Assembly: GCA_021163645.1 (NCBI GenBank)
Contig: JAGGTN010000029.1
Span: forward strand, 1-44,135
Direction of reading: 5' to 3'
Origin: Candidatus Micrarchaeota archaeon
GTDB taxonomy: Archaea; Micrarchaeota; Micrarchaeia; Anstonellales; JAGGTN01
Length of the DNA: 44,135 bases
The stretch's first letter is position 1; every line of letters begins with the position of its first letter. Below the pieces are notes generated by a model. The model was not told where the DNA came from and searched no databases. It worked only from the letters and a program-made list of their open reading frames with translations. Both the position numbers and the translations under genes were made by a program. Of the stretch, positions 532-43,710 are shown in pieces.

Positions 532-547
532 AAAGTATATTTTAGCA

Positions 548-609
548 TTTTACTGTTATATTCATCTGATTTTTTTATTATTGGGTTTTGGTTGATGATT
601 GATTTGATT
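548..609 (-). repeat. Copy A of a ~58-nt CA-rich intergenic element, inverted relative to copies B and C
   Basis: The reverse complement aatcaaatcaatcatcaaccaaaacccaataataaaaaaatcagatgaatataacagtaaaa aligns with 9490-9547 and 14099-14156, differing by a few substitutions and small indels. Confidence 0.8.
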
Positions 610-784
610 AATTTAATTATTTGATTTGTTTAATTTGTCAAAAATTAACTAGGTTATTAAGTTAAGGGTCAAAATAATTAACAATTTTCAGATGATATTA
701 CTAAAATTTTATGATATCATCGAAATATATAAACACTTATAGATTTAGCACAATATTTATAAATATATAATCATTAGAATTAAC

Positions 785-1783: not shown

Positions 1784-1793
1784 GAATAACCGT

Positions 1794-2957: not shown

Positions 2958-2974
2958 TGATTTATAATAATGAT

Positions 2975-4762: not shown

Positions 4763-4847
4763 ACAAAACCCTCATTTAGCTATATTTTTATATAATATTT
4801 ATTATCTAACGTCAATTATTATGTAAATAACATTTGATTCATTTAAA

Positions 4848-5052
4848 TGCGCCCGCCGGGATTTTCATGCTCTTTCTTTCATCTCTTCTCATCTTTCTAA
4901 TAAGTTTTAAAAGAAAAAAGCCATCGAACCCGGCTCCTAAGCTTTTTCCGACCTTTATTCCCATAAACCCTTTTTTTCCGCGCAGGCTTTTTCTTTTCCA
5001 GAAAGAAAAAGGGTGCTGGGAAGCTTATATCCTACCGATAGACTACGGGCGC
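4848..5052 (-). tRNA. tRNA-Gly (anticodon CCC) interrupted by two introns
   Basis: Hand-folded on the minus strand. Acceptor GCGCCCG/CGGGCGC, D-arm GTCT-ATCGGTA-GGAT, anticodon stem TAAGC/GCTTA with loop TT-CCC-A|A. T-arm CCGGG-TTCGA|AT-CCCGG, discriminator A. Exons 5052-5017, 4943-4924 and 4862-4848. Intron 1 is 5016-4944 (73 nt, canonical 37/38). Intron 2 is about 4923-4863 (61 nt, in the T-loop near 58/59; the boundary is ambiguous by 1-2 A residues). No encoded CCA. Confidence 0.7.
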
Positions 5053-5168
5053 ATATTGATTTATCATACATAGTATTTAAAAAACCGTTAGATATTAAGA
5101 TATATTTAAAATAATTTCCTGGAAGAAATCCTCAGGTTTCAACTGCGGATGAATTCCAGGCAATAATT

Positions 5169-5483
5169 TTGTTCACTGGAAATTTATTACCAATTATATG
5201 CGTACCTCAAAATATTTACTTATTATCTCTAAAATTCATTTCCATGGGAAATGCACTCTGTCTGCCTTTATTTATAAACATTCTTATCAAAATTTCGTCA
5301 TGCATGAAAATCACATTCAAATTCAAGATAAAGGAAAGAATTAAAACAACCATTGCAGATAAGCTTCCTTTGTTCTTAAACAAACTTCCTTTGGTTACTG
5401 TTGGATTTGGCGATGATACCGAAAGGTATATGAATAATCTTCATGCTATGTGCGATAAAATCGATTTTAATAAATCAGTATGA
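5169..5483 (+). CDS. Hypothetical ORF, doubtful
   Basis: Only an open frame with no motif and no obvious ribosome-binding site. If real, it more likely starts at the internal MKITFKF. Confidence 0.2.
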   Translation: MFTGNLLPIICVPQNIYLLSLKFISMGNALCLPLFINILIKISSCMKITFKFKIKERIKTTIADKLPLFLNKLPLVTVGFGDDTERYMNNLHAMCDKIDFNKSV

Positions 5484-5605
5484 ACTCTTATTAACCAAGT
5501 AAATACAAGCTATAAAAGCGAGGAGACAATAGAGAGTATTTAAAAAGATAATACTTGATTAAATTATGATACTTTGATTCAAATACAATATTTATAGGTG
5601 ATACT

Positions 5606-9382: not shown

Positions 9383-9489
9383 AATATAATTTGGTTAATT
9401 TCATTTTTAAATGTTTTTTACACGTTTTATATATAGGAGTTTACACGTCTTAACCAAATAATCAATATCAACATATTAATTTAAGCAAA

Positions 9490-9547
9490 TAATCAAATCA
9501 ATCATCAACCAAAAACCAATAAAAAATCAGATGAACATGATAGTAAA
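9490..9547 (+). repeat. Copy B of the ~58-nt CA-rich intergenic element
   Basis: aatcaaatcaatcatcaaccaaaaaccaataaaaaatcagatgaacatgatagtaaaa differs from copy C (14099-14156) at 3 positions. Confidence 0.85.
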
Positions 9548-9555
9548 AATAGAAA

Positions 9556-11194: not shown

Positions 11195-12787
11195 ATGGCT
11201 AAAGATGTATTTACACAATTCAAAGAGCATTCAGTTGCAGAATTCTTTAAGAAGAATAAACAGATGCTAGGTTTTTCAGGTAAAATTAGATCACTTACTA
11301 CCATTGTTCATGAACTTGTTACCAATTCTTTAGATGCTGCAGAGGAAGGAAGGATATTGCCAGATATTGTTGTTGAAGTTAGTGAGATAAATAAAGATGA
11401 AGGGAGGTACTTAGTACATATTGAAGATAATGGAACAGGTATCCCTGAAAAGCTTATTGGTAAGGCATTGGGTATGATGCTGGCTGGTACAAAATTTCAT
11501 AGATATGTCCAACAGAGAGGTCAACAAGGAATCGGTGCTGCTGGGGTTACGATGTATTCACAATTGACAACTGGTAAATCGGTTAAAGTTATATCTGGAT
11601 ACAAAGGGAAAAAGGTTACATGTGAAGTTCTTATTGATATCAGAACAAATAAACCAAAAGTTAATATTCTTAATAGAGAACCTAGCGAATGGCATGGGTT
11701 AATATACGAAGCTGAAGTTAAAGATGTGAAATATGATAAGAGTTCTTACGGCGTGTATGAATATCTTAAGAGGACTGCGCTTGCAAATCCACATGCATCA
11801 ATAACATTCTTGGATCCTCTTGGTGAAAGGCACATTTTTCCCAGATCTGTTGATGTGATCCCTCCCAAACCCAAACCAGTAAAACCGCATCCGTTAGGGA
11901 TTTCTACAAGTGATTTAATTGATTTTGCACATTATTCAAAAGAACCCACATTGAGTTCATTCTTTAGGAATACCTTTTCTAGGATATCTCAGTTAAAACT
12001 TGATGAGCTTAGAAATTATTTACCAGATATTAATTTTCGTATGAAACCGAGAATGCTTTCATGGGAACAGGCTGATAGGATAGTTAGTGTTTTTAAGAAA
12101 ATAAAATGGATATCTCCATCTTCTGATGGTATATATCCTATTGGCGAAAAACAGATTAAGAAGTCAATTTATAATATACTGAATCCAGAATTCTGCGAGG
12201 TTGTTGAGCGTAAACCGAAAATATACCGCGGTGGTATTCCATTCATCGTTGAAGTTGGGCTTGCGTATGGTGGAGATGCAGGTAGAAAGATTGGTTCTTC
12301 AAGGAATGGTGATGTGATAAGGTTCGCTAATCGCGCGCCATTGTTGTTTGATGCTGGCGGTTGTGGGATCACCGATGCTGTTAAAAGCATAGATTGGAAA
12401 CGTTACGGCATAAAAAATTTTGATGACGCACCGATAACTTTGATTATAAATGTCTCGTCTGTACATATTCCTTACACTGGTGCAGGTAAACAAGCCTTGT
12501 CTAGTGAACAGGATCTTGTTGATGAAATTCGTAATGCTATAATGGACGTTGCTAGAAAAATGCAGATTCATATTCGTGGTAAGGTGAGAGAGCGAGAGCG
12601 TGCTACGAAAATAAAATCAATATTAAAATATGTTGAACAGCTTTCGATGGATTTAGCGGAGCTTGCAGATTATTCTGAGAGGGATAAAATAAACAAAAAA
12701 TTAATTAAACTTGTTGAGATAAAATATAGTAAGACCAAGAAACATAATGATAATGAAAGTGAATCAGATAACAGATCTGTGGACTGA
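11195..12787 (+). CDS. top6B: DNA topoisomerase VI subunit B
   Basis: GHKL/Bergerat ATPase motifs ELVTNSLDA, IEDNGTGIP, GQQGIGAAG. 530 aa, immediately upstream of top6A. Confidence 0.95.
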   Translation: MAKDVFTQFKEHSVAEFFKKNKQMLGFSGKIRSLTTIVHELVTNSLDAAEEGRILPDIVVEVSEINKDEGRYLVHIEDNGTGIPEKLIGKALGMMLAGTKFHRYVQQRGQQGIGAAGVTMYSQLTTGKSVKVISGYKGKKVTCEVLIDIRTNKPKVNILNREPSEWHGLIYEAEVKDVKYDKSSYGVYEYLKRTALANPHASITFLDPLGERHIFPRSVDVIPPKPKPVKPHPLGISTSDLIDFAHYSKEPTLSSFFRNTFSRISQLKLDELRNYLPDINFRMKPRMLSWEQADRIVSVFKKIKWISPSSDGIYPIGEKQIKKSIYNILNPEFCEVVERKPKIYRGGIPFIVEVGLAYGGDAGRKIGSSRNGDVIRFANRAPLLFDAGGCGITDAVKSIDWKRYGIKNFDDAPITLIINVSSVHIPYTGAGKQALSSEQDLVDEIRNAIMDVARKMQIHIRGKVRERERATKIKSILKYVEQLSMDLAELADYSERDKINKKLIKLVEIKYSKTKKHNDNESESDNRSVD

Positions 12788-12940
12788 TGGGCTTGGATGG
12801 GTTGAGTTGTTTTTTGGTTTTGATTGAGTTGATTTGTTCTTTTGGTTGGGGTTGGATGGGTTTTTGTTTTTTGTTTGGCTTGGATTGCTTTCTGGGGTTG
12901 GATTGTGTGATTGGTTGAGTTGGTTGGGTTTGGGTTAGAT
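12788..12940 (+). repeat. Almost pure G+T low-complexity intergenic tract
   Basis: About 150 nt with only 5 C and roughly a dozen A, made of TTGG/GGTT runs such as ggttggggttggatggg and gggcttggatggg. It shares short motifs with the reverse complement of 35097-35200. Confidence 0.85.
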
Positions 12941-12998
12941 TTCATTGTGATGGAATATGATTTGATTTAATGATTTGTATAATTCGGAGGTTGATGAT

Positions 12999-14090: not shown

Positions 14091-14098
14091 CTTATTTT

Positions 14099-14156
14099 AA
14101 TCAAATCAATCATCAACTAAAAACCAATAAAAAATCAGATGAACATAACAGTAAAA
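14099..14156 (+). repeat. Copy C of the ~58-nt CA-rich intergenic element
   Basis: aatcaaatcaatcatcaactaaaaaccaataaaaaatcagatgaacataacagtaaaa, located 9 nt after the top6A stop. Confidence 0.85.
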
Positions 14157-16067: not shown

Positions 16068-16175
16068 TTACCTTCATGCCCCGGTCAGACAACCTTTTTT
16101 GGTTGTAACCCGTGGCATTCGTTACCTTCATGCCCCGGTCAGACAACCTTTTTTGGTTGTAACCCGTGGCATTCG
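16068..16175 (+). repeat. Two identical 54-nt tandem units, plus a 17-nt third partial copy running into tRNA-Asn
   Basis: Unit ttaccttcatgccccggtcagacaaccttttttggttgtaacccgtggcattcg occurs at 16068-16121 and 16122-16175, 100% identical. Each unit contains the tRNA leader and 5-prime end (tcatGCCCCGGT) and folds as a hairpin. Confidence 0.9.
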
Positions 16176-16185
16176 TTCCACTCAT

Positions 16186-16356
16186 GCCCCGGTAGCTTAG
16201 TGGTAGAGCGTTCGGCTGTTATGCACATTCTTTCATAAGGAAAGAACCTGCGCTAAGAAATAGAAGTTTTTTATGGAAATAGAAGTACTGGGAGAAAACT
16301 AGGGTCCTTTCAGTCCCGAAACCGAAAGGTCGGCGGTTCGAATCCGCCCCGGGGCG
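16186..16356 (+). tRNA. tRNA-Asn (anticodon GTT) with a 99-nt intron at the canonical 37/38 position
   Basis: Hand-folded. Acceptor GCCCCGG/CCGGGGC, D-arm GCTT-AGTGGTA-GAGC, anticodon stem TTCGG/CCGAA with loop CT-GTT-A|A. Variable AGGTC, T-arm GGCGG-TTCGAAT-CCGCC, discriminator G. Exons 16186-16221 and 16321-16356; intron 16222-16320. No encoded CCA. Confidence 0.8.
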
Positions 16357-19376: not shown

Positions 19377-20540
19377 TTATGGCTTATAAATATAATCATT
19401 GATTCTGTTTTTTGCTTTCTCTCTTTTCTTCTGATGTTCATCTAAGAAATTGTTTAGTTTATCAATAAGTATTTGTTTGAGTTCACCACTCAGTAATCTT
19501 CCATCTTTATAATCATCATGTATTTTTTTGAGTTTATCATCATCTTCTTCGAAGAATGTGAGCCATTGATATGAAACATCTATCTCAGGAATCCCTCCCA
19601 ACTTTCGATGTTTTTCAACTGTTTCACGACCTCCAGAAAATGCATACTTATTAATTTTTCTTTTAACCGTTTCCTTATCATCAATTGTGTATATAGTTGA
19701 TTTCTCGTTAGATGATGACATCTTTCCCTGTTCTGTGATGCCGCCAAGCCCGGGAAGGAAAATACATTCTATTGATGCTGGTTTGTAATAGCCTAATCTT
19801 GGAATAACATCACGGGATATCCTAAAATGCGGATCTTGATCTACTGCATGAGGGATAAGACATGGCCGATGGGTTCCTTCTAAAACATTGGGTAGGAATG
19901 CTGGCACTGCTTGCATGGCAGTATAGAATATCGCTCCTATATTCTGTTCGTTTCCAAAGCCAAAAGTTGCTTTTATTGTTGAGAAGGTTATCCGTTTAGC
20001 TACCTTTATTGCTTCTGGATACATGATCCCAGCATGTTTAGTATCTATTAGAAAATGTGTTTTTTTAGGATCAAATCCTAATGCGATAACATCAAGCATA
20101 TTCTCGTATACCATGTTTTGCACTTGTTCCAGATTTAAGTTTCTTTTCATGAGAAATTTTTCTTCGTCTGGAAACTGAAACCATAGTTCAGTATTGAATT
20201 TATCTTGTAGCCATTTGGTAAACAACCAAGGAATTAAGTGACCGATATGTGTATATCCTGATGGTGCACGTCCAGTATATAGAAAGAATTTATTACCTTT
20301 TTCATATTCATCTAATATAATATTCATATCCCTATGTGCAAAAAAAATCCCTCGCCTTAGGAAATAATGAAGTTTTCCAGTATGCTTCTTAATTCTATTC
20401 AGTAATTCATCATCTATCTTTGATAATCCAAAGTCTTCGATTAGTTTATCGTAATTAATGTCTCCCTTAACCTGCCAAGGTGTTACTATTGTTTCCTTTT
20501 TATCATTTTTCTCGTTTTCAAGATTCATCTTATCCACCAT
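19377..20540 (-). CDS. trpS: Tryptophanyl-tRNA synthetase (archaeal/eukaryotic type)
   Basis: Class I motifs GRAPSGYTHIGHLIPW (HIGH) and KMSSS (KMSKS). 387 aa. Confidence 0.95.
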   Translation of the reverse strand: MVDKMNLENEKNDKKETIVTPWQVKGDINYDKLIEDFGLSKIDDELLNRIKKHTGKLHYFLRRGIFFAHRDMNIILDEYEKGNKFFLYTGRAPSGYTHIGHLIPWLFTKWLQDKFNTELWFQFPDEEKFLMKRNLNLEQVQNMVYENMLDVIALGFDPKKTHFLIDTKHAGIMYPEAIKVAKRITFSTIKATFGFGNEQNIGAIFYTAMQAVPAFLPNVLEGTHRPCLIPHAVDQDPHFRISRDVIPRLGYYKPASIECIFLPGLGGITEQGKMSSSNEKSTIYTIDDKETVKRKINKYAFSGGRETVEKHRKLGGIPEIDVSYQWLTFFEEDDDKLKKIHDDYKDGRLLSGELKQILIDKLNNFLDEHQKKREKAKNRINDYIYKP

Positions 20541-20550
20541 TTATTTTTGT

Positions 20551-20602
20551 GTATAAATCCTATATATCCAGACAGTAAAATGCTCATAAAAATCTGCATT
20601 TT
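20551..20602 (-). promoter_or_regulatory. 52-nt conserved terminator/promoter-like cassette, copy 1 (between the KaiC-like stop and the trpS start)
   Basis: gtataaatcctatatatccagacagtaaaatgctcataaaaatctgcatttt. The first 43 nt are identical to 30942-30984. The minus-strand reading has T-runs (ATTTTTATGAGCATTTTAC) followed by the TATA-like GGATATATAGGATTTATAC. Confidence 0.6.
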
Positions 20603-20603
20603 A

Positions 20604-21491
20604 TTATCTTCTATTCTTTTTTGTTATCCCCTTCATTTTAATTCCTTCATTGCCTATCGTGAATGATTGAATAGTGTTATCATAATTGATGCCTCTCATC
20701 TTAATGATTTCAATATAATGTTCTCTTTTACGTTTATCATTTGCGCGTTCGTAACCTAGATAGATATAACCATCAGTAAGGGATTCAATTCCAGATATAC
20801 TTCTTGGAACTCTATAGTCTTGCCATTTACCGTTGTCTTCGGCTATGAATAATGTTGTCGTATTCCAACCTCTTGCTCTTTCTATGAATTTAATTAATGA
20901 CCTTCTTCTATCTAATTCGTTATCATAAAGTAATCCAAGTATTGTTATTGGGTCTATCAATACTCTTGTTATATTTGATTGTAATATCATTTTATGTACA
21001 ACATCATTCTTTATTATGAGCTGTTCTATTTCATCTACAGGAAATTCTACAAACAATAATCTTCCTTGCTTTTCAAGTTCGGATATATCCCATCCCAATC
21101 CTTTCATGTGTTTCAACGATGCTGTTTTATGCTCTTCAAAAGAAATATACATAACATTCTCATCATTCTTTATCCCTTCCATCAGAAACTGCATTCCCAA
21201 CGTTGACTTTCCCGAACCAACGTCTCCATTTATTGTTATCACACTACCCAATGGATATCCCCCTTTGAGTATTTTATCAAGCTGTTTAACGCCAGTTGAT
21301 ACGAATTCTGTTATTCTCCTCTTTCTTTTATTACTCCCTTTTTTCTTATGTTTTCTCATATTTTTCTCATTTCTTAATCTTTTAAGCTCTTCTTCAACTG
21401 TTTTTAATACCTCCTCTTCATCACCTTCTTTTACTTTTTCTTCATCATCATCTTCAGGATAAATACCAAATGATACTTCCATATTCATCAC
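20604..21491 (-). CDS. KaiC/RadA-like RecA-superfamily ATPase with a charged N-terminal extension
   Basis: Walker A GDVGSGKST in GGYPLGSVITINGDVGSGKSTLGMQF. Walker B-like RVLIDPI. The N-terminal ~60 aa are acidic then basic (KHKKKGSNKRKRR). Confidence 0.8.
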   Translation of the reverse strand: MMNMEVSFGIYPEDDDEEKVKEGDEEEVLKTVEEELKRLRNEKNMRKHKKKGSNKRKRRITEFVSTGVKQLDKILKGGYPLGSVITINGDVGSGKSTLGMQFLMEGIKNDENVMYISFEEHKTASLKHMKGLGWDISELEKQGRLLFVEFPVDEIEQLIIKNDVVHKMILQSNITRVLIDPITILGLLYDNELDRRRSLIKFIERARGWNTTTLFIAEDNGKWQDYRVPRSISGIESLTDGYIYLGYERANDKRKREHYIEIIKMRGINYDNTIQSFTIGNEGIKMKGITKKNRR

Positions 21492-30915: not shown

Positions 30916-30941
30916 CTTATCACCTCCTTTTTTTTAATTAA

Positions 30942-30993
30942 GTATAAATCCTATATATCCAGACAGTAAAATGCTCATAAAAATTCGCATTTT
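30942..30993 (-). promoter_or_regulatory. 52-nt conserved terminator/promoter-like cassette, copy 2 (between the trxB stop and the gdhA start)
   Basis: gtataaatcctatatatccagacagtaaaatgctcataaaaattcgcatttt has 2 mismatches to 20551-20602. Confidence 0.6.
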
Positions 30994-31038
30994 CCTGTCA
31001 TTTACGATTTCTCCTCTAACAACCATTAAATATTTAAA

Positions 31039-32566: not shown

Positions 32567-34342
32567 TCAAGCTGTCCTCTTAAACTTCTTTTCCATCTCG
32601 CCCCAACCTATTCTTATTATAGTTGGTCTTCCATGCGGACATGTAAATGGGTTATCACATTTTGAAAGGTCATTTAACAAATCTCTCATTTCAGTTATGG
32701 TCATTTCATGACCTGCCTTGATAGAAGCTCTACAAGATTTGGTGGCTATGCGATTATCCAATATCTCTTCAATTAATTTGATACTATTATCCCTTTTCTC
32801 ATCATAAAAAGAGATGATTTCATCAAGAACATCTTTAAAGAGCTTGATAGGAAGAGCATTATTGAATATGACGGGTATTGTATTGATTCTGTATGCATTA
32901 GGACCGTATTCTTCAATATCATACCCATACCGTTTCAATAATCTGATATGTTTTATTATTGCTAGTTGTTCTGTTTTGTTTGCCTCGAATATGACTGGTG
33001 ATAATAATTTTTGAGTTGATAAGGCATTATTCTTCAACTGTTTCATGAACCTCTCGTAATTAACCCTTTCCTGACTGGCATGCTGGTCTATGATGAAAAG
33101 TCCGTCAATATTCTCAGCTAGGATGTATGTTTTATTAACCTGTCCGATTATTTTTAACTCTGGGATTTGATGTTTGATATGGCTAAAAGGACCAGGTGAA
33201 TGAGAATGATTAGAATAAGATGGTTTTATCATCTGTTTTTCCGAATGAGTAATTGGAGTCAATGGTAATATTTTCTGGTTTGTTTTATCTGGCTTGTATG
33301 CTTTTTGCGGTTTTGATAGACTGTCTTCAGCATCGACGGTCACTGTCAGGTCATTCTTGCTCAATGAACTGTTTACTGATTGTTCTATCATACCTATTAG
33401 TTCGTTTTCATTCTTGAATTTAATCTTTCTCTTGGATGGATGGATGTTTACATCAATATCCTCTGGTGGTAAGTATAGTTTTAATATGATCACTGGATGC
33501 CTATTGAGGAATAATTTATTCTTATACCCTTTATAGACAGCATCGATAACTTCTTTTGATATTACGTATCTATCATTAACGAAAATAACTTGATAATTTT
33601 TTGTTTTCTTTGTATAACCAATTTTGGATATATATCCATTAATTTTCACATTACCAAAATGTGCATCAATAGGAATAAGATTCTCTGTAATCTCCCTACC
33701 AAATACATAGTATATCTTATCAAGTAAGTTGTTTGATTTAGGTGAATTAAAAACCTCTTTTCCATCTCTGTATAGATGAAATGATATGTTAGGGTTTGCC
33801 AATGAATAATTCCTTATCAAATGGATGATATGAGAAAATTCAACTTCCTCAGATTTCATAAATTTCAATCTAGCCGGGAACCTGGAGAATATATTCCTGA
33901 CAGTGATAACTGTTCCATCATTTATAGATACATTAACATCATTTTTGGGATTACCATTTTCATCATACTCCACTCTAACTCCAGTACTATTCCCAGATGT
34001 TTTTGATGCAACCGTAATATCTGCAATAGCCGATATACTAGCCAATGCCTCACCTCTAAATCCTAGTGATGTTATGTTAAAAAGGTCATCAATTGATTTT
34101 ATCTTGCTTGTTGAGTGTCGTTTCACGCATACCATTAAGTCATCATGGTTCATTCCTTTACCATTATCGATAACTTTTATCAATCGTTTACCACCATGCT
34201 CAACAAAAACCTTAATATCATCGGCGTTTGCATCAATTGAATTTTCAATGAGTTCTTTGACCACAGAAACTGGTCGTTCTATTACTTCTCCAGCAGCTAT
34301 CTTTTCAACCAGTTCTTTTGGAAGATGAATGATATTTCCCAA
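32567..34342 (-). CDS. mutL: DNA mismatch repair protein MutL (endonuclease-type)
   Basis: GHKL N-terminus IAAGEVIERPVSVVKELIENSIDA and DNGKGM. C-terminal endonuclease motif DQHASQERVNYE (DQHAxxExxxxE) and FTCPHGRP. TTG start 5 nt after GGTGA. Confidence 0.93.
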   Translation of the reverse strand: MGNIIHLPKELVEKIAAGEVIERPVSVVKELIENSIDANADDIKVFVEHGGKRLIKVIDNGKGMNHDDLMVCVKRHSTSKIKSIDDLFNITSLGFRGEALASISAIADITVASKTSGNSTGVRVEYDENGNPKNDVNVSINDGTVITVRNIFSRFPARLKFMKSEEVEFSHIIHLIRNYSLANPNISFHLYRDGKEVFNSPKSNNLLDKIYYVFGREITENLIPIDAHFGNVKINGYISKIGYTKKTKNYQVIFVNDRYVISKEVIDAVYKGYKNKLFLNRHPVIILKLYLPPEDIDVNIHPSKRKIKFKNENELIGMIEQSVNSSLSKNDLTVTVDAEDSLSKPQKAYKPDKTNQKILPLTPITHSEKQMIKPSYSNHSHSPGPFSHIKHQIPELKIIGQVNKTYILAENIDGLFIIDQHASQERVNYERFMKQLKNNALSTQKLLSPVIFEANKTEQLAIIKHIRLLKRYGYDIEEYGPNAYRINTIPVIFNNALPIKLFKDVLDEIISFYDEKRDNSIKLIEEILDNRIATKSCRASIKAGHEMTITEMRDLLNDLSKCDNPFTCPHGRPTIIRIGWGEMEKKFKRTA

Positions 34343-34388: not shown

Positions 34389-35036
34389 TTACTTTCCAGT
34401 TAATGATTCTACTAAACCATCTACGAGTTTGAGCTGGTTCTGCATTAATTTCTCTTCGAGAATATCGCAATTGACTCCTATACTTTCTAATTTTTCTTTC
34501 ATTCTTTTTCTTATCCCACACATAAGCAATACACTCTTCATACCGGATGTGGAACCGATGAATAATAGATAGAATTTAGATAATTGATTGTAATCAAGTT
34601 CCCCTAAATCACGAATGATGGATTGGGTTGATTGTAGAAGTTTATCAGGTATATAATTATCCGATGGATTGTTTGGTAATCTATGTATTAGATATTCCAT
34701 TTCTTTCTGGGTGGCTAGTTTTAGTTTAAGCATTAATCCTGCGAAATACTTAATATGATTATCTTTTATGAAGTTTAGGTTTATTTCTTTACATTGTTTC
34801 ATAATATTGTTTGCATCTTGTTCTATTCGGTTTAATTCACTGTTTGATAAATGAGCATTGTATGATGATATGCTTGATTCATCAGAGAATATGAACACAG
34901 AATTCAAATCAATGTTAGTATCCATCGATTCGCTACGAATAAATACATCAATCTTTTCGATCAACGGAGAAATGTTTGTGAAAGATACCAATTCTGTTAC
35001 AGTTTTATGCAATTGTTCTTTTTTTTGTAATACCAT
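34389..35036 (-). CDS. Hypothetical protein (orphan), last gene of the giant-protein cluster
   Basis: The ATG at 35036 is preceded by GAGGTGA; the track start is 35054. 215 aa with no recognised motif. Confidence 0.55.
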   Translation of the reverse strand: MVLQKKEQLHKTVTELVSFTNISPLIEKIDVFIRSESMDTNIDLNSVFIFSDESSISSYNAHLSNSELNRIEQDANNIMKQCKEINLNFIKDNHIKYFAGLMLKLKLATQKEMEYLIHRLPNNPSDNYIPDKLLQSTQSIIRDLGELDYNQLSKFYLLFIGSTSGMKSVLLMCGIRKRMKEKLESIGVNCDILEEKLMQNQLKLVDGLVESLTGK

Positions 35037-35096
35037 AATTATCACCTCAACCATCTAGTTATTATCCAACTATAACCAAATCCATTTATAATATAA

Positions 35097-35200
35097 TCCA
35101 TCCCAGCCAAACCAACCCCAAACCAAATAATCCCAACCAACCAAAAAACAGCCCCAAGCCAATCAAGTCCAAGCCAATCCAAGACAAACAAATCAAACCC
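35097..35200 (-). repeat. G+T low-complexity intergenic tract (G+T on the minus, gene-sense strand)
   Basis: The plus strand is nearly pure C+A (ccaaaccaaccccaaaccaaataatcccaaccaaccaaaaaac...). The reverse complement shares ggcttgga, ttttttggtt and tttggggttgg motifs with 12788-12940. Confidence 0.85.
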
Positions 35201-35225
35201 TATTTGATTATTCTAATTATCTTTA

Positions 35226-38200
35226 TTATTTAAATGATTGTTTTCCTTCATTATATAATCTCTCCATTTCTTCTGAGCCAAGCATTGATGATATGTCCTT
35301 AAATAATTTTTTTTCATTACTCCTTTTTGCTTTGCCCGTGAATAAATCATTTAAATTTTTAGGTTCGCCCTTCTTTTCGATATCAATACGGTTTATTCCT
35401 ATCTTATAGTATTCTTTATTATATTTAAAGAATATTCCGTTTTTGGATACGCATGCAAAACCCTTACTTGAATTTATGTTGCCGAATATTTTTGTATTAG
35501 GGTCATTAATGATGGTTTCAAATGTTTTATCATTAATATGCTCTGCATATATCCGGAAGTTCCTAAGATGATCGTCATCTATACTTAACTGTTTCTGTGC
35601 TTCTGTATTATAACCTGATTTGTATATTATTGCGCGTAATATATTCTTTTCCAGTATTGAATAGTTTCCTGATAATTTAAGTTGTATAGATTCGTCAACG
35701 CCGTTTATTACTGGAATACTATGTACTAAGCCATCTATTAAATCGACCCCCGGCGCTTCCTTAATAATATCATACCTATAAATATTACCTTCCTTTGTCA
35801 ATATACTAATAGTTATCGAGAATATAGCATCGGAATTGGCACCAGATTCTTCCAATTGTTGGTATTTCTTAGATGGATCATGGAATATCTCAGGATAATC
35901 ACTTAATGATTTTCGTAAATAGAAAGCACTTTTATTCCCATCAGTATCTATTATTGTTATCTTATAAACATTGGTCTTAGTGTCCAATTTTGACATTTCA
36001 CCAGATTCGCTTACTTTACTTATTGAGATTTTAGATAGTTTTTTGAAATTTACTGGTAATTTAAACTTATCAATGACAGATGATATTAGAGTGTTAAAAT
36101 TGTTACCCATTTCTGATGGTATGGCAATATCACTAGGGAGGTATGCTGATTCAATCGTTGATACAAAATATGATTCATTAAAAGGTATTAATGTTATCTT
36201 ATCATAATCATTAAAATCAAATCCGTAAGTTATTTCGATTTTTTTACTTTGCAATATCGTATCAATACGGTTAGATATTACTGGGTCCTCTAATAGATTG
36301 TTCATTTTGAGTTTGTAATTGTCAATATCTATCACTCCATCTGTCTTGGAATACCAATATTTACCATTATACGTAATATCTTTTGGTAGCCCCAACAAGT
36401 TTAATGTTTCGATTAGTTCTCTGGGACGTTCTTCTGGTGGGATATGCTTACATGAGAATAGAATTCGTTGAATCATTTTGTTTTTATGGATCAGGTCAGA
36501 GCTTAATTTTCTGTATTGTGGAGACCAATCAATAACTGATACACTGCTTCCCATATTATAATAATTTGTCAAGACAGTAAGTCCATCAGAGATATTCTGT
36601 TTGAGAGATCTATCACTATCCAATCCTGACTTAACAATCATCTTTATGTCACCGGTTATACCATTAACCAATGAATTATTAAGAGCGTTATTGATGCGTA
36701 TGTTAAATTCTCTAACATTTGCGTTAGCGGGTAACAATACGATGAAGTTCTTTTTCTTCGTGCGATATACACCTGCGAATTCGCCAAGTTCATCTTTTGG
36801 CGTTCCCTTTTCTATATTCCTGAATTCATTAAATAATATCCTACCAATATTTCCTATGAACACATCTGTTTGTGCCATGCTGGTGTTATCGTTCATTATC
36901 TTAACAGTACGCCTGCCAGTGAATGGCCCGCCGTTAAGTTGATAATCTACGATTAACATTTTGTATTTGCCTGAATTTATCTCTTGTGTAATCTCATCAC
37001 TGTTCTGGATAAGCCAATCTTCTGATAACACACCTTCGATATCTGCGTTTGATTGTTTGATCCCTGATGATGTTGATGTTTTTTTCATTATTTTTGAATT
37101 TACATCTTCATAGATTTCACTCTTCAATATGTTGCCATTTACTGATGACAGCGTGGTACCATTTGATAGGTCAGTGCTTCGCCTAGCCATTGTTTGCGCC
37201 ATGACATTCCCCTCAATGCGTGAGTATGTTAATTCCAATATCGATAATTCTCTCTTATCTAAGTTAGCTTCAACAATACGGTTCTTTTTAGTCGCTGAAA
37301 CAATATCTTGCGCGCGGTTTCTATCCATTCCATTATTAACCAGTTCAGTAACAAGTAGTTTATCACCATTTTCCACCATACGTATATCTTTATCATATAA
37401 TTTTTCAAACCTGAGTAGTATTTCGGTGTTCCTTTCCATTGTTTCTCCAATATCATTATCTATCTTCATGTTTTCATATACGCTAAATGTAAGTACGCCC
37501 GATCTTTTTTCCGGTGATGGGTAATCTAATTTATTGAATAAGAGACCTTCTCCTTCTATGCTTTTTATATACTCCTTTACTTTCTCATTAGCCGTAACAA
37601 TAGCTTTTTCATATAGTTTAGGATCATATTTACCAAAAACCATGACAAGGAATTCTTCTGTTCCGCCTTCAACTACAACATTACGTCCTAGTTTTTCTTT
37701 TAGAGTATTGTTGTATATCTCCATAACATTGTCCATGACATCTGGTGTGTAGAAATCATTAAGTTTGCCGAAATTAACTCCATCCGTTAATATCACACTC
37801 GCATCAAAATGGTCAAGTTTGATTCCAAACTGTTCCCATTTCATATTGAATTCATGCATGTTGTCTATAAGATCATTAAGCTTCTGGGCAATTGATACCC
37901 TACCAGTTGTTTTGTCATCAAAGTGTATGTATCCTGGCGTCGTGATTGCTTTGAAATAATCATCTATTAATTCGTTCCAATACGCTGGAGGTATGTGATT
38001 TTCCGTAATCATTTCGCCTATGTTATCAATGGCTTGTTTAGGTGGTATTATTATTGCATGCTCAGGTTGATTTTTAAACCATTGTTTTGCTTGGTTAGTA
38101 ATATTGATATTCACATTCGGTTGTGTGCTAAGTAATGGTTTTGTGTCCTTACCCATGGCTTCGCCTATAGTTTTCCCTGCGGGTAATGATTGTTTTAAAT

Positions 38201-40142
38201 TCGGGTTGGATAATTTTAAATCAGGTAATCTTATTGAGCGATAATTGCCAGATATCTTGACCGAATAATCTTTTGGGATAGGAATAAATTTACTGTGTTT
38301 ATCCCCGATTGAGAACCTTATTGTGTCAAATGAAGAGCCGTTTTCAAGTACTACCTTACGTAACTCCACTGTCATTTTCTTGCCTTTATATTTTGGGTTG
38401 GTGATATTGATTCCAAGTTTTGTTCTCTCTCCTGTTTTTATCTTTTTTACCTCTATGTTAACATCTGTTTTATTTGAAGGATTATGAATAAAATTAGCTA
38501 TCCCCAATCCGATAAATATTGATGACATGACGATGTTGGATATATCTTCGGGTGTGAATGTAGTTAATGAGCCATTTGCAAATTCAGTCATAAGATTATA
38601 ACTCATCCCACTGACTAGGACGCCTGCAGAAATGTCTTTTAATCTGCCTAAGGCATTGGCTAAAGCTCCCTGCGCTACAAGTTCTTCTCCTATTCCTGTT
38701 ACCATCATTATTGGGAGCGAAGCATTAGCCACAGCTCCCAACCAGTTTTTCTGTTTAATATTTTCAATGGTTCCTATTACTCCTTCTGCTCCGAAATATG
38801 CTTTTACTACCCCTGATCCTAACCTGTTTAACATTGTAGCTGCTTTAATTGATGAGGCAGAGCCAGAAATAGGTAATGATAGTAAGAATAATATCGTTGG
38901 TCCAGCTGTAAATCCTAACCCTGGAACCTTCTGGCAGTACAATGTGTTTGATATTGCATGAAAATCCAATCGTGTATATTCACTTGATCGTTCGCCGAGT
39001 TTATTTGTTATGTCAGAATAATATAATTTGTTTTGGGTCTTGAATATTGGTTTGTAGTCAAATACATTGAATCGTTTAATTAGTTCTGGGAATGTCTGGG
39101 GTGCTAATGGTGAATGGTAAATATCACCAGGCATTTTGGAATAATTATTGGTTTTATATTTCATTTCTTTATTAAATGTCTTGAAATCGTTTGTTTTTTT
39201 GAGAATGCTGACTGTTTGCTTGAGATTATATAAGACCTGTTGAACTGTTAAGTCTGCTTTATGTATCTTATCATTGATTTTTTTAATAGAATTCTCTGTG
39301 AAAGGTGATTCTGTTTCATCTTTGGATAAAACAACTACATAATCATCAGTCATACTGCCCCATACTTTTCTGAATGGTGAAAATTTCTGTATCTCTCCTG
39401 TTTTTGGGTCTTTGTATGTTTTTGCTTGATAGCTGTTTAATGGTACTATCGTGTAACGCTCATTATTAAGATACTTCTTGTTCAATGTTTCTTCATCTTT
39501 CTCGTTCTCAACATATAATACATTTTCTATTCTATTTATTTTTATATTCTCGGTGACGATTTCCATTCTATTTATTATTTCTGCTGAGGTGTATGCCCAT
39601 GTTTTGCTTAGGACATAGAATGACATGAAGTCAGTTATATTATTTATTTTATCTTTGTTTAATAACTCATTTTCTAATTTTTCTTTGAGTTGTTCTAGTG
39701 TATTCAAGTCCATGTTTGTGAGTATGTTTTTAAATTTATCTAAGTTTTTATCTGCTTCTAAAGTTAAATTCTCTATGTCTATATTTGTCTTAGATACTTC
39801 TTGATTTTGAATTATCGGAACTTCGATTTCCTGTCCATGTGTGCTTGTGATATCTGTATCTGCAGTAACAAAATTTGGTTTGATGAGTATCGGTGTTGAT
39901 AAGGATAATATCTTATTAACCTCTATGTACATATCAGTAGTTTTCATATTGGCCAAATTTTTTATCTGAGACCTGGAACCGTATTTTTTGATGAATGAAG
40001 ATAACTGTTTTCTGATTTCTGGTTCATGTTTCTTCTCAATGGTTATTTTATTTCCTTCTTTTGTCATGTATCTCTGTGCATTGTCTATGAGAAGTAATCC
40101 TTCTATAAAGTTTGCGTCTCTGGTTTTAGTCTTTACTGACAT
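35226..40142 (-). CDS. Giant multidomain protein, 1638 aa
   Basis: Uninterrupted 4.9-kb ORF. Residues ~406-552 are a hydrophobic Gly/Ala-rich block. Residues ~775-895 are GGDEF-like with GGTEEF (nt 37650-37667, verified by hand translation). Residues ~1060-1175 are a second, degenerate GGDEF-like region. Residues ~1390-1600 carry a kinase-like motif series. Confidence 0.85.
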   Translation of the reverse strand: MSVKTKTRDANFIEGLLLIDNAQRYMTKEGNKITIEKKHEPEIRKQLSSFIKKYGSRSQIKNLANMKTTDMYIEVNKILSLSTPILIKPNFVTADTDITSTHGQEIEVPIIQNQEVSKTNIDIENLTLEADKNLDKFKNILTNMDLNTLEQLKEKLENELLNKDKINNITDFMSFYVLSKTWAYTSAEIINRMEIVTENIKINRIENVLYVENEKDEETLNKKYLNNERYTIVPLNSYQAKTYKDPKTGEIQKFSPFRKVWGSMTDDYVVVLSKDETESPFTENSIKKINDKIHKADLTVQQVLYNLKQTVSILKKTNDFKTFNKEMKYKTNNYSKMPGDIYHSPLAPQTFPELIKRFNVFDYKPIFKTQNKLYYSDITNKLGERSSEYTRLDFHAISNTLYCQKVPGLGFTAGPTILFLLSLPISGSASSIKAATMLNRLGSGVVKAYFGAEGVIGTIENIKQKNWLGAVANASLPIMMVTGIGEELVAQGALANALGRLKDISAGVLVSGMSYNLMTEFANGSLTTFTPEDISNIVMSSIFIGLGIANFIHNPSNKTDVNIEVKKIKTGERTKLGINITNPKYKGKKMTVELRKVVLENGSSFDTIRFSIGDKHSKFIPIPKDYSVKISGNYRSIRLPDLKLSNPNLKQSLPAGKTIGEAMGKDTKPLLSTQPNVNINITNQAKQWFKNQPEHAIIIPPKQAIDNIGEMITENHIPPAYWNELIDDYFKAITTPGYIHFDDKTTGRVSIAQKLNDLIDNMHEFNMKWEQFGIKLDHFDASVILTDGVNFGKLNDFYTPDVMDNVMEIYNNTLKEKLGRNVVVEGGTEEFLVMVFGKYDPKLYEKAIVTANEKVKEYIKSIEGEGLLFNKLDYPSPEKRSGVLTFSVYENMKIDNDIGETMERNTEILLRFEKLYDKDIRMVENGDKLLVTELVNNGMDRNRAQDIVSATKKNRIVEANLDKRELSILELTYSRIEGNVMAQTMARRSTDLSNGTTLSSVNGNILKSEIYEDVNSKIMKKTSTSSGIKQSNADIEGVLSEDWLIQNSDEITQEINSGKYKMLIVDYQLNGGPFTGRRTVKIMNDNTSMAQTDVFIGNIGRILFNEFRNIEKGTPKDELGEFAGVYRTKKKNFIVLLPANANVREFNIRINNALNNSLVNGITGDIKMIVKSGLDSDRSLKQNISDGLTVLTNYYNMGSSVSVIDWSPQYRKLSSDLIHKNKMIQRILFSCKHIPPEERPRELIETLNLLGLPKDITYNGKYWYSKTDGVIDIDNYKLKMNNLLEDPVISNRIDTILQSKKIEITYGFDFNDYDKITLIPFNESYFVSTIESAYLPSDIAIPSEMGNNFNTLISSVIDKFKLPVNFKKLSKISISKVSESGEMSKLDTKTNVYKITIIDTDGNKSAFYLRKSLSDYPEIFHDPSKKYQQLEESGANSDAIFSITISILTKEGNIYRYDIIKEAPGVDLIDGLVHSIPVINGVDESIQLKLSGNYSILEKNILRAIIYKSGYNTEAQKQLSIDDDHLRNFRIYAEHINDKTFETIINDPNTKIFGNINSSKGFACVSKNGIFFKYNKEYYKIGINRIDIEKKGEPKNLNDLFTGKAKRSNEKKLFKDISSMLGSEEMERLYNEGKQSFK

Positions 40143-40202
40143 GTTTCAACCCCAAATTTTTATATTATGCGGATTCAAGTTTTTGGATCCGGATAGGTTT
40201 GT

Positions 40203-41072
40203 TTATAATGGAATGTAGATGTCATCAGCATCAGGGTAGAGTTTTTGGTTGCTTATTCTTGTAATGGGTTTTCCTTCTGATGTCATTACTGTTTCTAACG
40301 CATGCTTACTATTTAGCAACCTCTCCATTAATTCTAGGTTTTCTTTCATTCGTTTCCAATCAATGGCTTCTTTTAATGAATTCCATTTCTCTTTTTTATC
40401 ATTCATTATTTTATCCTTAATATCAGTTAGATATTTCAAGGCAATAGCTCTATCAAATCGTCCGAGTATTCTTACCAGATCTAGCCGTAATGGATCATCG
40501 TTAATTATCATATTATAAAATCTACGTGCCAGTCGTTCATCATCAGCGTTTTCATCTACACATTTTTTAAACATGAAAAATCTCAGCACATAACCTACCT
40601 TGATTTTTCTATTATTCATCTGACTGAAAAAATCTAATAATTCTTTCTTGCCCTTGTTTGTTGTTGCACCTCTAACCATTACCATACCTAATATCACAGT
40701 AATCGTATTATAGGTTAGATTCGCTACTTCTATTTTATCGATTTGCTTAGCAGCCAATTCGTCTCCTTTTGTGATATATTCATGCCTAAGCTTATCCTTA
40801 GCAGATGAGATTAACTTCTCCATCTCAATACTATATTTTTCGAGAGCTGCTCGTGCCTCTTTGGTTAAATCTGTGCAATTTATCTTATCCAATTCTTTCA
40901 ATAACCAATTAGTATTTGGAGAAGCATAGAATAATAGACTTGATTTGCCTAATTCCAATATCTTTTTAAGTTCTTTATCTTTTATGGTAGCTATTACTTT
41001 AGAATATATCATAAGCCGGTTTTCTTTTGTATCAATCATATTTATTAATCGTTTCTCTATCTCAGTTAACAT
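40203..41072 (-). CDS. Hypothetical protein (orphan, helix-rich composition)
   Basis: 289-aa ORF ending 60 nt upstream of the giant gene start. No recognised motif. Confidence 0.6.
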   Translation of the reverse strand: MLTEIEKRLINMIDTKENRLMIYSKVIATIKDKELKKILELGKSSLLFYASPNTNWLLKELDKINCTDLTKEARAALEKYSIEMEKLISSAKDKLRHEYITKGDELAAKQIDKIEVANLTYNTITVILGMVMVRGATTNKGKKELLDFFSQMNNRKIKVGYVLRFFMFKKCVDENADDERLARRFYNMIINDDPLRLDLVRILGRFDRAIALKYLTDIKDKIMNDKKEKWNSLKEAIDWKRMKENLELMERLLNSKHALETVMTSEGKPITRISNQKLYPDADDIYIPL

Positions 41073-41148
41073 ACAATCACCTAATATAATTAAATTATGA
41101 TGATTGATTATTTTAAAGTTATTGTTTGCTGATTATAATAAAAGGGTA

Positions 41149-42105
41149 TTATACTTTCACAGCTTCCTTTTCATCTTTCCTGTGAGTAATATAATCAAAA
41201 TATGTTGATGGATAAGTTATATTTGTATATGTCTCAGGTGGGTTTTCTGAAATTGTGTTAAACATCTCTTTTGTATCACCAACGAATAATCCAAACATCT
41301 GATACATGAAACTGGATGATAGAGTGAGTAGGTAATCCTGAACGCGTTGCATTTGTATGTCTTCAGTAAAAGGGCCAAATGTTGCATACAGTAATAAGGG
41401 AGATAAGACATTATCATATTCTTCAAATCCAGGCATATCATATTCGTTTTTTCTATTTATCACCCATCTCCTTGCTTTGTTCATGTTAATGATATACATC
41501 TCATCTGGTTGTGGGATATAAGGGATGTTTGATAAGGCCAAACTGGTTAATGATAAACATGCAAAACTCTCTACAGATGCAGGTTTTACATGTAATATTA
41601 AACCCTTATCTGTAAATATGGTGATATCATCTTTGTGTTTGAACAGTAAAGAAATCATAATATCATTGGCGATGTCCTCGTTCTTTAAATTTATTATTAT
41701 GTTATCAAAATTCTGGCCGTATTCATCATTCTTTAATAATTCTCTCCTTTTTATTTCATATTCAATACCTAATTTTGTTCTGCGTAAAATATTGTATATG
41801 AAAACCTTGCTAAAAGGAAGATGGATATTTATGTTCTTTGACATAATGATCCAGTTGATATAAATATCCTTATCTTCAACATGCATTAATCGTGTATCAT
41901 CTTGGGTAAAAACGTCATTTAAGGCGATAATAATTTTCTTAATATCAGGTCGTCTTCCAGTGAGCTTATTCACTAATTTCAGACTTTTAATGCTCATATC
42001 CTCTATTCTATTCTTTACGCGAATGAAATCCTCTCTTAATCTATAATCTTTGATATCCCTAGGATTCATTATCTCCTTATTATTAATAAGTCCTATTATT
42101 TTCAT
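41149..42105 (-). CDS. Hypothetical protein (orphan), first gene of the cluster
   Basis: ORF with a probable start at the ATG at 42105 (MKIIGLINNKEIM...). The track start at 42261 would extend the protein through the conserved non-coding hairpin element. No recognised motif. Confidence 0.55.
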   Translation of the reverse strand: MKIIGLINNKEIMNPRDIKDYRLREDFIRVKNRIEDMSIKSLKLVNKLTGRRPDIKKIIIALNDVFTQDDTRLMHVEDKDIYINWIIMSKNINIHLPFSKVFIYNILRRTKLGIEYEIKRRELLKNDEYGQNFDNIIINLKNEDIANDIMISLLFKHKDDITIFTDKGLILHVKPASVESFACLSLTSLALSNIPYIPQPDEMYIINMNKARRWVINRKNEYDMPGFEEYDNVLSPLLLYATFGPFTEDIQMQRVQDYLLTLSSSFMYQMFGLFVGDTKEMFNTISENPPETYTNITYPSTYFDYITHRKDEKEAVKV

Positions 42106-42186
42106 GTTATTATTATGGGAGCCATAGTTTATAAAGTTATTGTTTGAGCATAGATGTGTTTGTATTGTGTGTATCCATAAACCGTT

Positions 42187-42238
42187 ATGTATTGATAGTT
42201 GGCAAATCTTCAGTATGCCAAGTTTCAATTTCGATTGC
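42187..42238. other. Candidate structured element, copy 2 core
   Basis: tatgtattgatagttggcaaatcttcagtatgccaagtttcaatttcgattgc is ~80% identical to 18887-18942. It keeps the TTGGCA/TGCCAA hairpin and is flanked by a perfect 9-bp complementary pair, TTTGAGCAT (42143-42151) and ATGCTCAAA (42254-42262). Confidence 0.35.
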
Positions 42239-42541
42239 AAGATTGAGGTATACATGCTCAAAGAGGAGAGGAGTCTTTGTAGATAAATTACTGAGGATAA
42301 GAATAACTGAGGGATAAGAATAAGAATGATAAGGAATAATCAGTAAAAACATTCTTCTCTAATTTCTCTCTTTCGTATTTTTTACTTTGTGTTTTATCTC
42401 ATATAAGAAAAGATAAACACAGATAATTGTCTAATATCCAAATAATCATCCCAAACCAGAAAAATAAGAAGATTTTCGGTTTATTTACAATCACAGAGAA
42501 ATCACAGGATAGTGGTATGAAATAAATAGGTTTTTAAATTT

Positions 42542-43411
42542 GTGATGAGAAAACCTATTATGTCAAATCTTTTGTTTGGATATGAAGGGTATGATTCAAA
42601 GGATGAGCATAATGAGAATGAGTATGATTCAGGTGATTCAAATATTTCAAAAGAGTTTTCTAAAAATGAGTGCTCTGTTGATATGAATCAATCTATAAGA
42701 GAGAAGAAAGCAGAACTGGTTCATGAACTTCGATACGGAGATGGTAAGGAGAGGGTGGATGCAGCATCCCGATTAATTGAGATGTTGGACACTGATGTCA
42801 AGAATGAGACTACCTGGCAGTTAATCAAAGAATTAACCGCTCTGCTTGTAGAAGATTGGGCGATTGATGAGCTTAAGAGGGTTACGAAAAATATTGAGAA
42901 AAATAATAGGCATAAGAAGAATTGGGGTGAGATGCAGGCTTATCTCGTAGGAAAAATGTCTTATGAGATATTTAAGCGATTGGAAAAAGAGCAATCCGAC
43001 AGAGAGATTTTGATTATCGGTGAGTTATTAAAACGTTCTGGTTTACTGCTTATCAAACTTGTGACCAAGCCTGTTAATTGGATTTATGAACAGATATCTT
43101 CGCTTTTTAATAAAAATAAGGAAAATAAACCTGATGCTAAAGAGATCATTAACCAGATAAAAGAGGATCCTAAACAGGCATGGGCTAGAATAATGAAAAT
43201 GAATTTGGATGATACACTTACCTTATTTGAACAGGTGGATAGTATCTTTTCTGAGGAAGGGATTAACATCCCAGAGCCGGTTCAAGATAGAGATGAAGTT
43301 ATAGCAGAGCTCAGCAGTAAGATTAGCGAATTGTGTGCATCAGCACCTCAACACGTGAAAGAAAAAATAGATGTTGCATCATTAACAGAAAAGCTGGATA
43401 CAATAGCATGA
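42542..43411 (+). CDS. Hypothetical protein, divergent from the cluster
   Basis: 289-aa ORF with GTG at 42542 and ATG at 42545. Acidic N-terminus, then a helical body with a possible HEAT-like segment (ELRYGDGKERVDAASRLIEM). An orphan. Confidence 0.55.
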   Translation: MMRKPIMSNLLFGYEGYDSKDEHNENEYDSGDSNISKEFSKNECSVDMNQSIREKKAELVHELRYGDGKERVDAASRLIEMLDTDVKNETTWQLIKELTALLVEDWAIDELKRVTKNIEKNNRHKKNWGEMQAYLVGKMSYEIFKRLEKEQSDREILIIGELLKRSGLLLIKLVTKPVNWIYEQISSLFNKNKENKPDAKEIINQIKEDPKQAWARIMKMNLDDTLTLFEQVDSIFSEEGINIPEPVQDRDEVIAELSSKISELCASAPQHVKEKIDVASLTEKLDTIA

Positions 43412-43650
43412 CTTGATGTATAGATTTATAGGCATGACTCGATATATATAGATTTATAGCAATAGTTTTCATTTATTATAACGTTTCCTTTTATTCTGAC
43501 CGTTAATCTTGATAAGCCTAAGATAATTCGTTTATGTTAAATTCGTTTATCATTTAGTTTATCGTTTATATTTAATTCGTTTATATTTGGGTGAAATATT
43601 GTTAGGTATAAAGTATTAAGAATAAAATTTTAGTATTAAACTTTATACTG

Positions 43651-43710
43651 CCAGTAAAATGCTCATAAAAATTATGCTTATAAAAATTATGCTCATAAAA
43701 ATCCTATTTT
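43651..43710 (-). terminator. Cassette copy 3: T-run half only, with a 15-nt unit triplicated
   Basis: Shares cagtaaaatgctcataaaaat with copies 1 and 2. atgctcataaaaatt, atgcttataaaaatt and atgctcataaaaatc are tandem at 43659-43703. On the minus strand this gives three ATTTTTAT runs starting 5 nt after the Sec61-beta stop. No minus-strand gene follows. Confidence 0.5.

Follow-up and report, generated by a model that had tools for sequence, protein, structure and literature searches.

We analysed a stretch of 44,135 nucleotides (nt) from a Candidatus Micrarchaeota archaeon (contig JAGGTN010000029.1, positions 1 to 44,135; "the window" below means this whole stretch) and focused on four genes that lie in series on its minus strand, the third of which encodes a multi-module protein of 1638 amino acids (aa), referred to here as the giant. 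A first-pass annotation, made from the DNA letters alone, had put these genes forward as a four-gene system. The open reading frame (ORF) listing bears out the arrangement it described: gene A (41149-42261, with its first in-frame ATG at 42105, which gives a protein of 318 aa), gene B (40203-41072; 289 aa), the giant gene (35226-40142) and gene D (34389-35054, with an ATG at 35036 that gives 215 aa), all read from the minus strand, follow one another with gaps of 76, 60 and 189 nt. After a further 46 nt comes mutL (32567-34342, also on the minus strand; 591 aa). Shine-Dalgarno-like sites lie just 5' of the ATG of gene B (GGTGA) and of the gene D ATG at 35036 (GAGGTGAT), and the start of mutL likewise has a GGTGA or GAGGTGAT site upstream. 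These sites and the short intergenic gaps are signs of an operon, as is the G+T-rich spacer between the giant and gene D, since a similar one lies within the Topo VI B-A gene pair.

Several lines of evidence indicate that these ORFs are real genes. An uninterrupted frame of 1638 codons could not arise by chance in DNA of 32% GC, so the giant must be a genuine gene. The same locus was recovered in 10 contigs from JGI, ENA and Logan assemblies at >99.7% nucleotide identity, and the giant ORF is intact in nine independent assemblies of one population; in one contig (L005), an in-frame deletion of 45 nt removes 15 aa (codons 189-203). Third codon positions hold six of the eight coding single-nucleotide polymorphisms (SNPs; binomial p≈0.02), and both SNPs in gene B fall there. 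Moreover, the giant aligns with a distant protein, P0029, encoded on locus L014, with 27% identity over ~1300 aa (giant aa 86-1306, E=1.7e-108). Because a distant homologue exists, the ORF is intact across assemblies and SNPs favour third positions, we regard all four ORFs as real genes. The window also carries archaeal genes, including those for both subunits of Topo VI (B and A), a form III-type RuBisCO, a RadB/KaiC-like ATPase, a KH protein and ScpA/B. Its GC content is ~32% throughout, the cluster being no exception, and the cluster is flanked by housekeeping genes with no obvious island. The locus is thus real, extremely lineage-restricted and archaeal, and its host is probably a small-genome archaeon of the DPANN type.

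The giant as a fusion of two units

An exhaustive HMMER search with aa 600-1638 of the giant as the query recovered only three relatives among 1.84 billion representative proteins, and these differ in the parts they contain. P0029 (1272 aa) matches aa 86-1306 of the giant and ends without its C-terminal module; P0030 (381 aa) consists of that module alone, as a stand-alone protein; and P0031 (801 aa) combines the membrane module with the C-terminal module. Given these three architectures, the giant reads as a fusion of two units that are encoded separately in known relatives. The start of the C-terminal module is marked by a conserved junction motif, GFPxDI / GLPKDI.

The family, with four known members including the giant, is rare and patchily distributed. 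No relatives of the giant were found in 185,579 GTDB species genomes or in viral contigs, phages and plasmids, and neither the rest of the window nor the extended contigs contain paralogues of the cluster proteins. A word-indexed homology search with the giant returned only the giant itself; repeated with a profile of all four members, it returned only the giant's own cluster and missed P0029-P0031 as well. Pfam gave no match at threshold for the giant or its partners, and neither PADLOC nor PHROGs gave a credible match (for PADLOC, none at E≤1). No curated family model in the libraries searched matched the architecture of the giant, and we found no description of it in the literature consulted.

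Domain anatomy of the giant

The first-pass annotation had ascribed a nucleotide-cyclase-like signature to the giant, and four independent sub-threshold lines (Pfam, the NCBIfam model TIGR00254, a PDB profile search and Foldseek) upheld this by pointing to GGDEF. They converge on a first palm domain at aa 776-900 (37443-37817, minus strand). The family-model matches span only profile positions of about 28-98. With a two-sequence profile of this palm, diguanylate cyclases made up seven of the eight PDB matches, and in the alignment to the T. maritima diguanylate cyclase, TDG, KLND, D and G-T-E-E-F of the giant correspond to D, ND, GD and G-G-D-E-F. Palm 1 keeps the metal-binding Asp of strand beta1, the Asn/Asp of FGKLND and a second Asp, all of which are also present in P0029. 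The hairpin signature of the giant is GTEEF and that of P0029 MGEEF; EEF is thus invariant, and each protein has another residue at one of the two Gly positions. An RxxD I-site was not identified. The sequence comparisons therefore support a GGDEF-type palm at aa 776-900; we use "GGDEF-type" instead of naming it a family member, because no curated cut-off was reached. In palm domains, an Asn recognises guanine, and a Ser is typical for adenine (PMC12657218); by this rule, the Asn/Asp pair of palm 1 suggests a guanine nucleotide as substrate.

A second, degenerate palm is probably present at aa 1056-1175 (36618-36977, minus strand), as judged from its equivalent in P0029, which matches Pfam GGDEF with E=0.0066, and from an AlphaFold2 (AF2) model. 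In the giant, KKNF takes the place of the acidic DEF of this palm, which also contains a strongly conserved loop, QLxGGxFxGRRTVK. No other region is as well conserved (38% identity to P0029). The AF2 model of aa 700-1300, which is provisional (predicted local distance difference test, pLDDT, 52), shows the topology b-a-a-b-b-a-b twice. Foldseek searches with this model returned almost exclusively GGDEF domains, with E values of 1e-4 to 1e-2, probability 1.0 and a target-normalised template modelling (TM) score of 0.5-0.62; Cas10/Csm1 and GTP cyclohydrolase III were also present in the same run.

The C-terminal module of ~290 aa (aa 1349-1634; 35241-36098, minus strand) is possibly protein-kinase-like. 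It contains the motifs KTNVY, YxR, EAPG, IPVIN, DDDHLRNF and RIDIE, which recur across its homologues in the invariant forms KTNV, YxR, EAxG, IPVIN, DDDHLxNF and RIDxE. Its AF2 model (pLDDT 54) has the order b-b-b-a-b-b, reminiscent of a kinase N-lobe. As in kinase-fold phosphotransferases (ePK, APH/choline-kinase and RIO-type), this order is followed by a hinge-like segment (EAPG), a D-x4-N motif (within DDDHLRNF) and, later, I-D-x-E. Taking these model-based likenesses together with the counter-evidence given below, we consider the odds that the module is protein-kinase-like to be roughly even.

The remaining parts of the giant lie upstream of the palms. Its N-terminal domain (aa 1-400; 38943-40142, minus strand) is 32% identical to P0029 and has no match to Pfam or PDB in sequence and profile searches. 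It is followed by a Gly/Ala-rich membrane module (aa 401-556; 38475-38942, minus strand), in which hydropathy analysis placed two strongly hydrophobic helices at about 406-428 and 534-552. At 35% identity to P0029, this module is one of the best-conserved parts of the giant, which substantiates the membrane signature noted in the first-pass annotation; by eye, it is also seen in P0031, and the fragment matches no Pfam family. PDB searches with the beta-rich linker and with the sequence of the whole giant returned only noise, and the linker matched no family. No signal peptide was found, and hydropathy revealed no N-terminal hydrophobic segment. Given the even-looking number of helices and the lack of a signal peptide, both large soluble parts would lie in the cytoplasm, where nucleoside triphosphates are available.

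Conserved partner genes

The small partners gave no sequence match in Pfam, NCBIfam, PADLOC, PHROGs or PDB, just as the first-pass annotation had recognised no family among them; none of them thus matched a housekeeping family. Gene D is the partner with the clearest linkage. On two metagenome contigs (L011 and L012), an ORF of 202-204 aa overlaps the end of a stand-alone C-module gene and matches gene D (BLASTP E=5e-10; none of 1000 shuffled sequences reached the score). These alignments identify gene D as a conserved partner of the C-terminal module. L014, where P0029 is encoded without a C-module, has no A-like or D-like gene, which fits D belonging with that module.

Gene B encodes a lysine-rich protein that appears helix-rich by eye. 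Directly upstream of the P0029 gene in L014 lies a gene encoding 277 aa, which aligns collinearly with gene B (122-219 versus 119-214; BLASTP E=0.011), a score reached by 7 of 1000 shuffles (p≈0.007). From this weak linkage, gene B probably belongs with the part of the giant that comprises the N-terminal domain, membrane module and palms. For gene A, no homologue was found in L011-L014 or in the other data searched, and we regard it as a species-specific orphan that is no part of a conserved system. Its 318-aa form is the one present in the protein collection. In one strain, eight SNPs cluster at 42186-42249, just upstream of the gene A ATG, compared with eight SNPs in 8 kb of coding sequence; since these upstream SNPs fall in mixed codon phases, a TTG-started extension beyond the ATG at 42105 is unlikely.

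By these comparisons, the cluster resolves into two conserved pairs, B with the first unit and the second unit with D (the link of B being weak), which are joined by the fusion and accompanied by the orphan gene A. The proposal of a four-gene system thus holds for gene D and, more loosely, for gene B, but not for gene A. Synteny in relatives is accordingly partial, with D-like genes in L011 and L012 and a B-like gene in L014.

The relatives' loci yielded two further observations. In L014, the P0029 neighbourhood is flanked on its upstream side by a divergent run of five consecutive genes (1-5915; 329-453 aa, plus one truncated at the locus end), none of which matches a Pfam family. Beside the stand-alone C-module gene in L011 is a 157-aa ORF (815-1288, minus strand) with the pattern of an archaeal class III (pilin-like) signal peptide and a weak Pfam match (E=0.028); this pattern supports an archaeal origin of L011.

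Leader, spacers and surrounding sequence

The leader of the cluster (42106-42541, minus strand) is common to the cluster and a divergent gene (42542-43411), and it carries both a tandem repeat and a hairpin. The 17-nt tandem repeat noted earlier was found at 42286-42323, in 2.3 copies. The hairpin (42388-42421) had been taken for a copy of the hairpin element repeated in the window, an assignment that we reject: it occurs once in the window, and copies of the element are confined to 20574, 30965 and 43653, the nearest of which (43653) sits beyond the divergent gene and outside the leader. The leader is where population variation is concentrated: besides the SNP cluster upstream of the gene A ATG, strains differ by a 14-nt insertion or deletion with linked SNPs at 42354-42378. 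We also considered the divergent gene, which encodes 289 aa, as a member of the system and rejected it, because L014 lacks a counterpart.

Between the giant and gene D lies a G+T-rich spacer (35087-35202, minus strand; at least 85% G+T). Defining an extreme tract as ≥85% G+T over ≥80 nt (window mean 52%, standard deviation 7%), we found only two in the window, this one and another at 12774-12953 on the plus strand. The tract before the last gene is therefore present, as the first-pass annotation had stated, but is not specific to the cluster. Both tracts, read on the coding strand, separate two genes that point the same way and are linked in function (Topo VI B from A, the giant from D), and both contain several runs of G3-G4. 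The tract between the giant and D is identical in all strains compared. Some gene callers place a gene for a small hydrophobic peptide of 49 aa here, which we rejected because there is no ATG-started ORF.

Elsewhere in the window, two intergenic repeat families were observed. The first (20540-20613, 30931-31004 and 43644-43673) combines a TATA-like stretch with the hairpin AAAATGC...GCATTTT, and its three exact 20-nt cores compare with 0.02 expected by chance. The second (548-637, 9463-9548 and 14092-14156) occurs in both orientations. A tRNA gene within 16068-16356, with the anticodon loop GUU, has a 100-nt insertion after the anticodon; it matches Rfam with 57.5 bits and was missed by ARAGORN. 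Directly before it, a 54-nt unit is repeated in tandem (2.3 copies at 95-100% identity); this unit and the 5' end of the tRNA have GCCCCGGT in common. Beyond the end of the window at 44135, on the flank beside the divergent 289-aa gene, two contigs (L004, 1-5887; L005, 1-3400) encode an FG-GAP repeat protein of >1207 aa, a KaiC-like ATPase and a gene that varies by strain, with a product of 176 aa or 736 aa. In a further contig (L001; JGI Ga0187538_156017), the cluster appears as a large inverted duplication with truncated copies of mutL and gene B, which is most likely an artefact of assembly, either chimeric or palindromic.

A proposed mechanism and its alternatives

We propose that the giant is a membrane-tethered, multi-domain enzyme-like protein assembled from two units. 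The first comprises the N-terminal domain, the Gly/Ala-rich membrane hairpin and the two tandem palms, with the gene for a B-like protein before it; the second is the C-module of ~290 aa with its kinase-like motifs, with the gene for a D-like protein after it. The two palms may pair within one chain. Models for such pairing are offered by Cas10, heterodimeric class III cyclases and GTP cyclohydrolase III. On the cytoplasmic face of the membrane, the palms would make a GTP-derived product, either a dinucleotide resembling cyclic di-GMP (c-di-GMP) or another cyclic or linear oligonucleotide. In cis, this nucleotide output could be coupled to the (phospho)transferase-like module at the C-terminus; protein D may either control the activity of that module or be its target. 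B would serve as an accessory subunit of the N-terminal part, and gene A would be a neighbouring orphan outside the conserved system. We favour a membrane-tethered nucleotide-signal synthase because of the predicted cytoplasmic placement, the presence of an active-looking and a degenerate palm in a single chain, and the Asn/Asp pair of palm 1. The anatomical part of this proposal is very probably correct; the proposal as a whole, with its mechanism, we put somewhat below an even chance.

Among known systems, the giant would be a nucleotide enzyme with palm domains whose architecture and partners are new, closest in kind to the GGDEF diguanylate cyclases and then to Cas10/mCpol. The diguanylate cyclases (PF00990/TIGR00254; PleD, WspR and the T. 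maritima enzyme, 4URG) match aa 776-900 best in both sequence and structure, with hardly any other family matching, and membrane anchoring is common among bacterial GGDEF enzymes. The giant differs from them in having two palms per chain, of which the second is without acidic residues, in its archaeal host, in its lack of an identified I-site and in its fusion to unrelated N-terminal, membrane and C-terminal modules. With Cas10 and mCpol (Panoptes OptS), it has the palm superfamily in common, and in Cas10, too, an active palm and a degenerate one belong to a single chain. Unlike these, the giant matches no hidden Markov model (HMM) of Cas10 or mCpol and no PADLOC entry, has the base-reading Asn instead of Ser, and is accompanied neither by cas genes among the annotated ORFs of the window nor by a CARF, SAVED or S-2TM-beta partner. 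GTP cyclohydrolase III (MJ0145, 2QV6; Foldseek E≈2e-3) is archaeal and carries two tandem cyclase/GGDEF-like palms per chain, but it is much smaller and soluble, scores lower in structural comparison (target-normalised TM about 0.33) and has no sequence match.

Several observations weigh against our proposal. Palm 1 scores below the curated cut-offs of both family models (15.2 bits, E=0.018, against 23.8 bits for PF00990; 21.5 bits, E=1.5e-4, against 37.4 bits for TIGR00254), its signature departs from GG[DE]EF at the glycines (GTEEF and MGEEF), and, at 22% identity to P0029, it is among the least conserved regions of the giant. For palm 2, PDB sequence searches gave no significant match to GGDEF, and the idea that the two palms are detectable internal repeats was rejected after hhalign gave a negative result. 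Both AF2 models are of low confidence (pLDDT 52 and 54), built as they are from alignments of 2-3 sequences, and with only four family members the arguments from conservation are thin. Furthermore, GGDEF proteins and c-di-GMP signalling are very rare and almost unknown in archaea, and we could identify neither a receptor nor an effector for a nucleotide signal.

The kinase-like signature of the C-module, also claimed in the first-pass annotation, is weakly supported. Foldseek matches to its model were mostly protein kinases but weak (E≥0.02, probability at most 0.75, TM about 0.2), and sequence and profile searches of Pfam, NCBIfam and PDB returned no kinase. Its D-x4-N motif and putative metal-binding Asp are 59 residues apart, compared with ~13 in canonical kinases, and an invariant Arg stands where the beta3 Lys is usual.

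In an alternative reading, the palm and kinase-like domains would be pseudo-enzymes that act only as binding or structural modules of a large membrane-associated protein, for example in a cell-envelope or cell-cell contact apparatus. Degenerate GGDEF domains commonly act as receptors, and the deviant signature, the clearly degenerate palm 2, the poor overall conservation of palm 1, the Arg in place of the beta3 Lys and the atypical motif spacing would all agree with such a scaffold. However, the palm 1 residues that persist at ~22% identity include the catalytic and base-reading TDG, ND, D and EEF, and DDDHLxNF and RIDxE persist in C-modules that are 28-37% identical, so that we consider a wholly non-catalytic protein quite unlikely. 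Against its being a plain surface protein, the giant carries enzyme-like domains. The retained palm residues go unexplained if the giant is an effector resembling a polymorphic toxin. In that case, the N-terminal and membrane modules would deliver it to, or insert it into, the membrane of a host or competitor, the C-module would be the toxic or effector domain, and D would protect against it as immunity protein or antidote; on this view, L011 and L012 would carry an orphan cassette of the toxin-immunity or toxin-antitoxin kind. Like the bacterial toxins CdiA, Rhs and MafB, the giant is large, with an exchangeable C-terminal domain that begins at a junction motif (GFPxDI / GLPKDI) and is linked to a small downstream gene. 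What follows at the C-terminus varies among family members (nothing, palms alone, palms with C-module, C-module alone), a D-like gene always follows the C-module, overlapping it in L011 and L012, and the organism is probably a host-dependent archaeon with a small genome. Against this, there is no signal peptide, and Pfam, NCBIfam and PDB searches revealed neither a domain known from secretion or trafficking nor a match to an established toxin or immunity family. The surroundings are housekeeping genes, the locus is essentially invariant in the population and has no array of alternative or orphan C-terminal cassettes, the host is archaeal, the protein contains internal enzyme-like palms, and the apparent polymorphism is poorly sampled, with four members only. 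We therefore regard a toxin as unlikely.

Another alternative is an abortive-infection defence in which a palm synthase is fused to a membrane-perforating module that is gated by its own nucleotide, comparable to the Panoptes (mCpol-2TM), CBASS-Cap15 or Pycsar systems. Coupling or fusion of mCpol genes to 2TM membrane-perforating domains has been reported (PMC12657218), and this agrees with a GGDEF/Cas10 superfamily palm in a protein whose two-helix membrane module is followed by a strand-rich segment (by eye), as well as with the rare, patchy distribution of the family. On the other side, PADLOC models gave no match at E≤1, Pfam found no S-2TM-beta, mCpol, CARF or SAVED domain in the giant or in its transmembrane and beta-rich fragments, and the HMM matches favour GGDEF over mCpol or Cas10. 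The flanks are housekeeping genes and form no defence island, and such a system would give the N-terminal domain, the kinase-like module, B and D no role. We consider it very unlikely. The membrane-tethered nucleotide-signal synthase remains the reading that we favour. It might be extended to an undescribed form of archaeal nucleotide signalling, in which a tandem-palm (GGDEF/Cas10-like) synthase makes a guanine messenger that controls the fused, atypical kinase-like effector together with D, for host interaction or antiviral defence in a host-dependent archaeon with a small genome; this extension is doubtful.

Implications

If the proposal is correct, a membrane-anchored, catalytically plausible GGDEF-type palm would extend palm-domain nucleotide signalling to small-genome archaea. 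The general impact is limited by the tiny size of the family (four among 1.84 billion proteins) and by its uncultivated sources, unless more members or an activity are found. By tying the palm unit to D and to a C-module that could otherwise not be annotated, the fusion provides a functional hypothesis for four orphan protein families.

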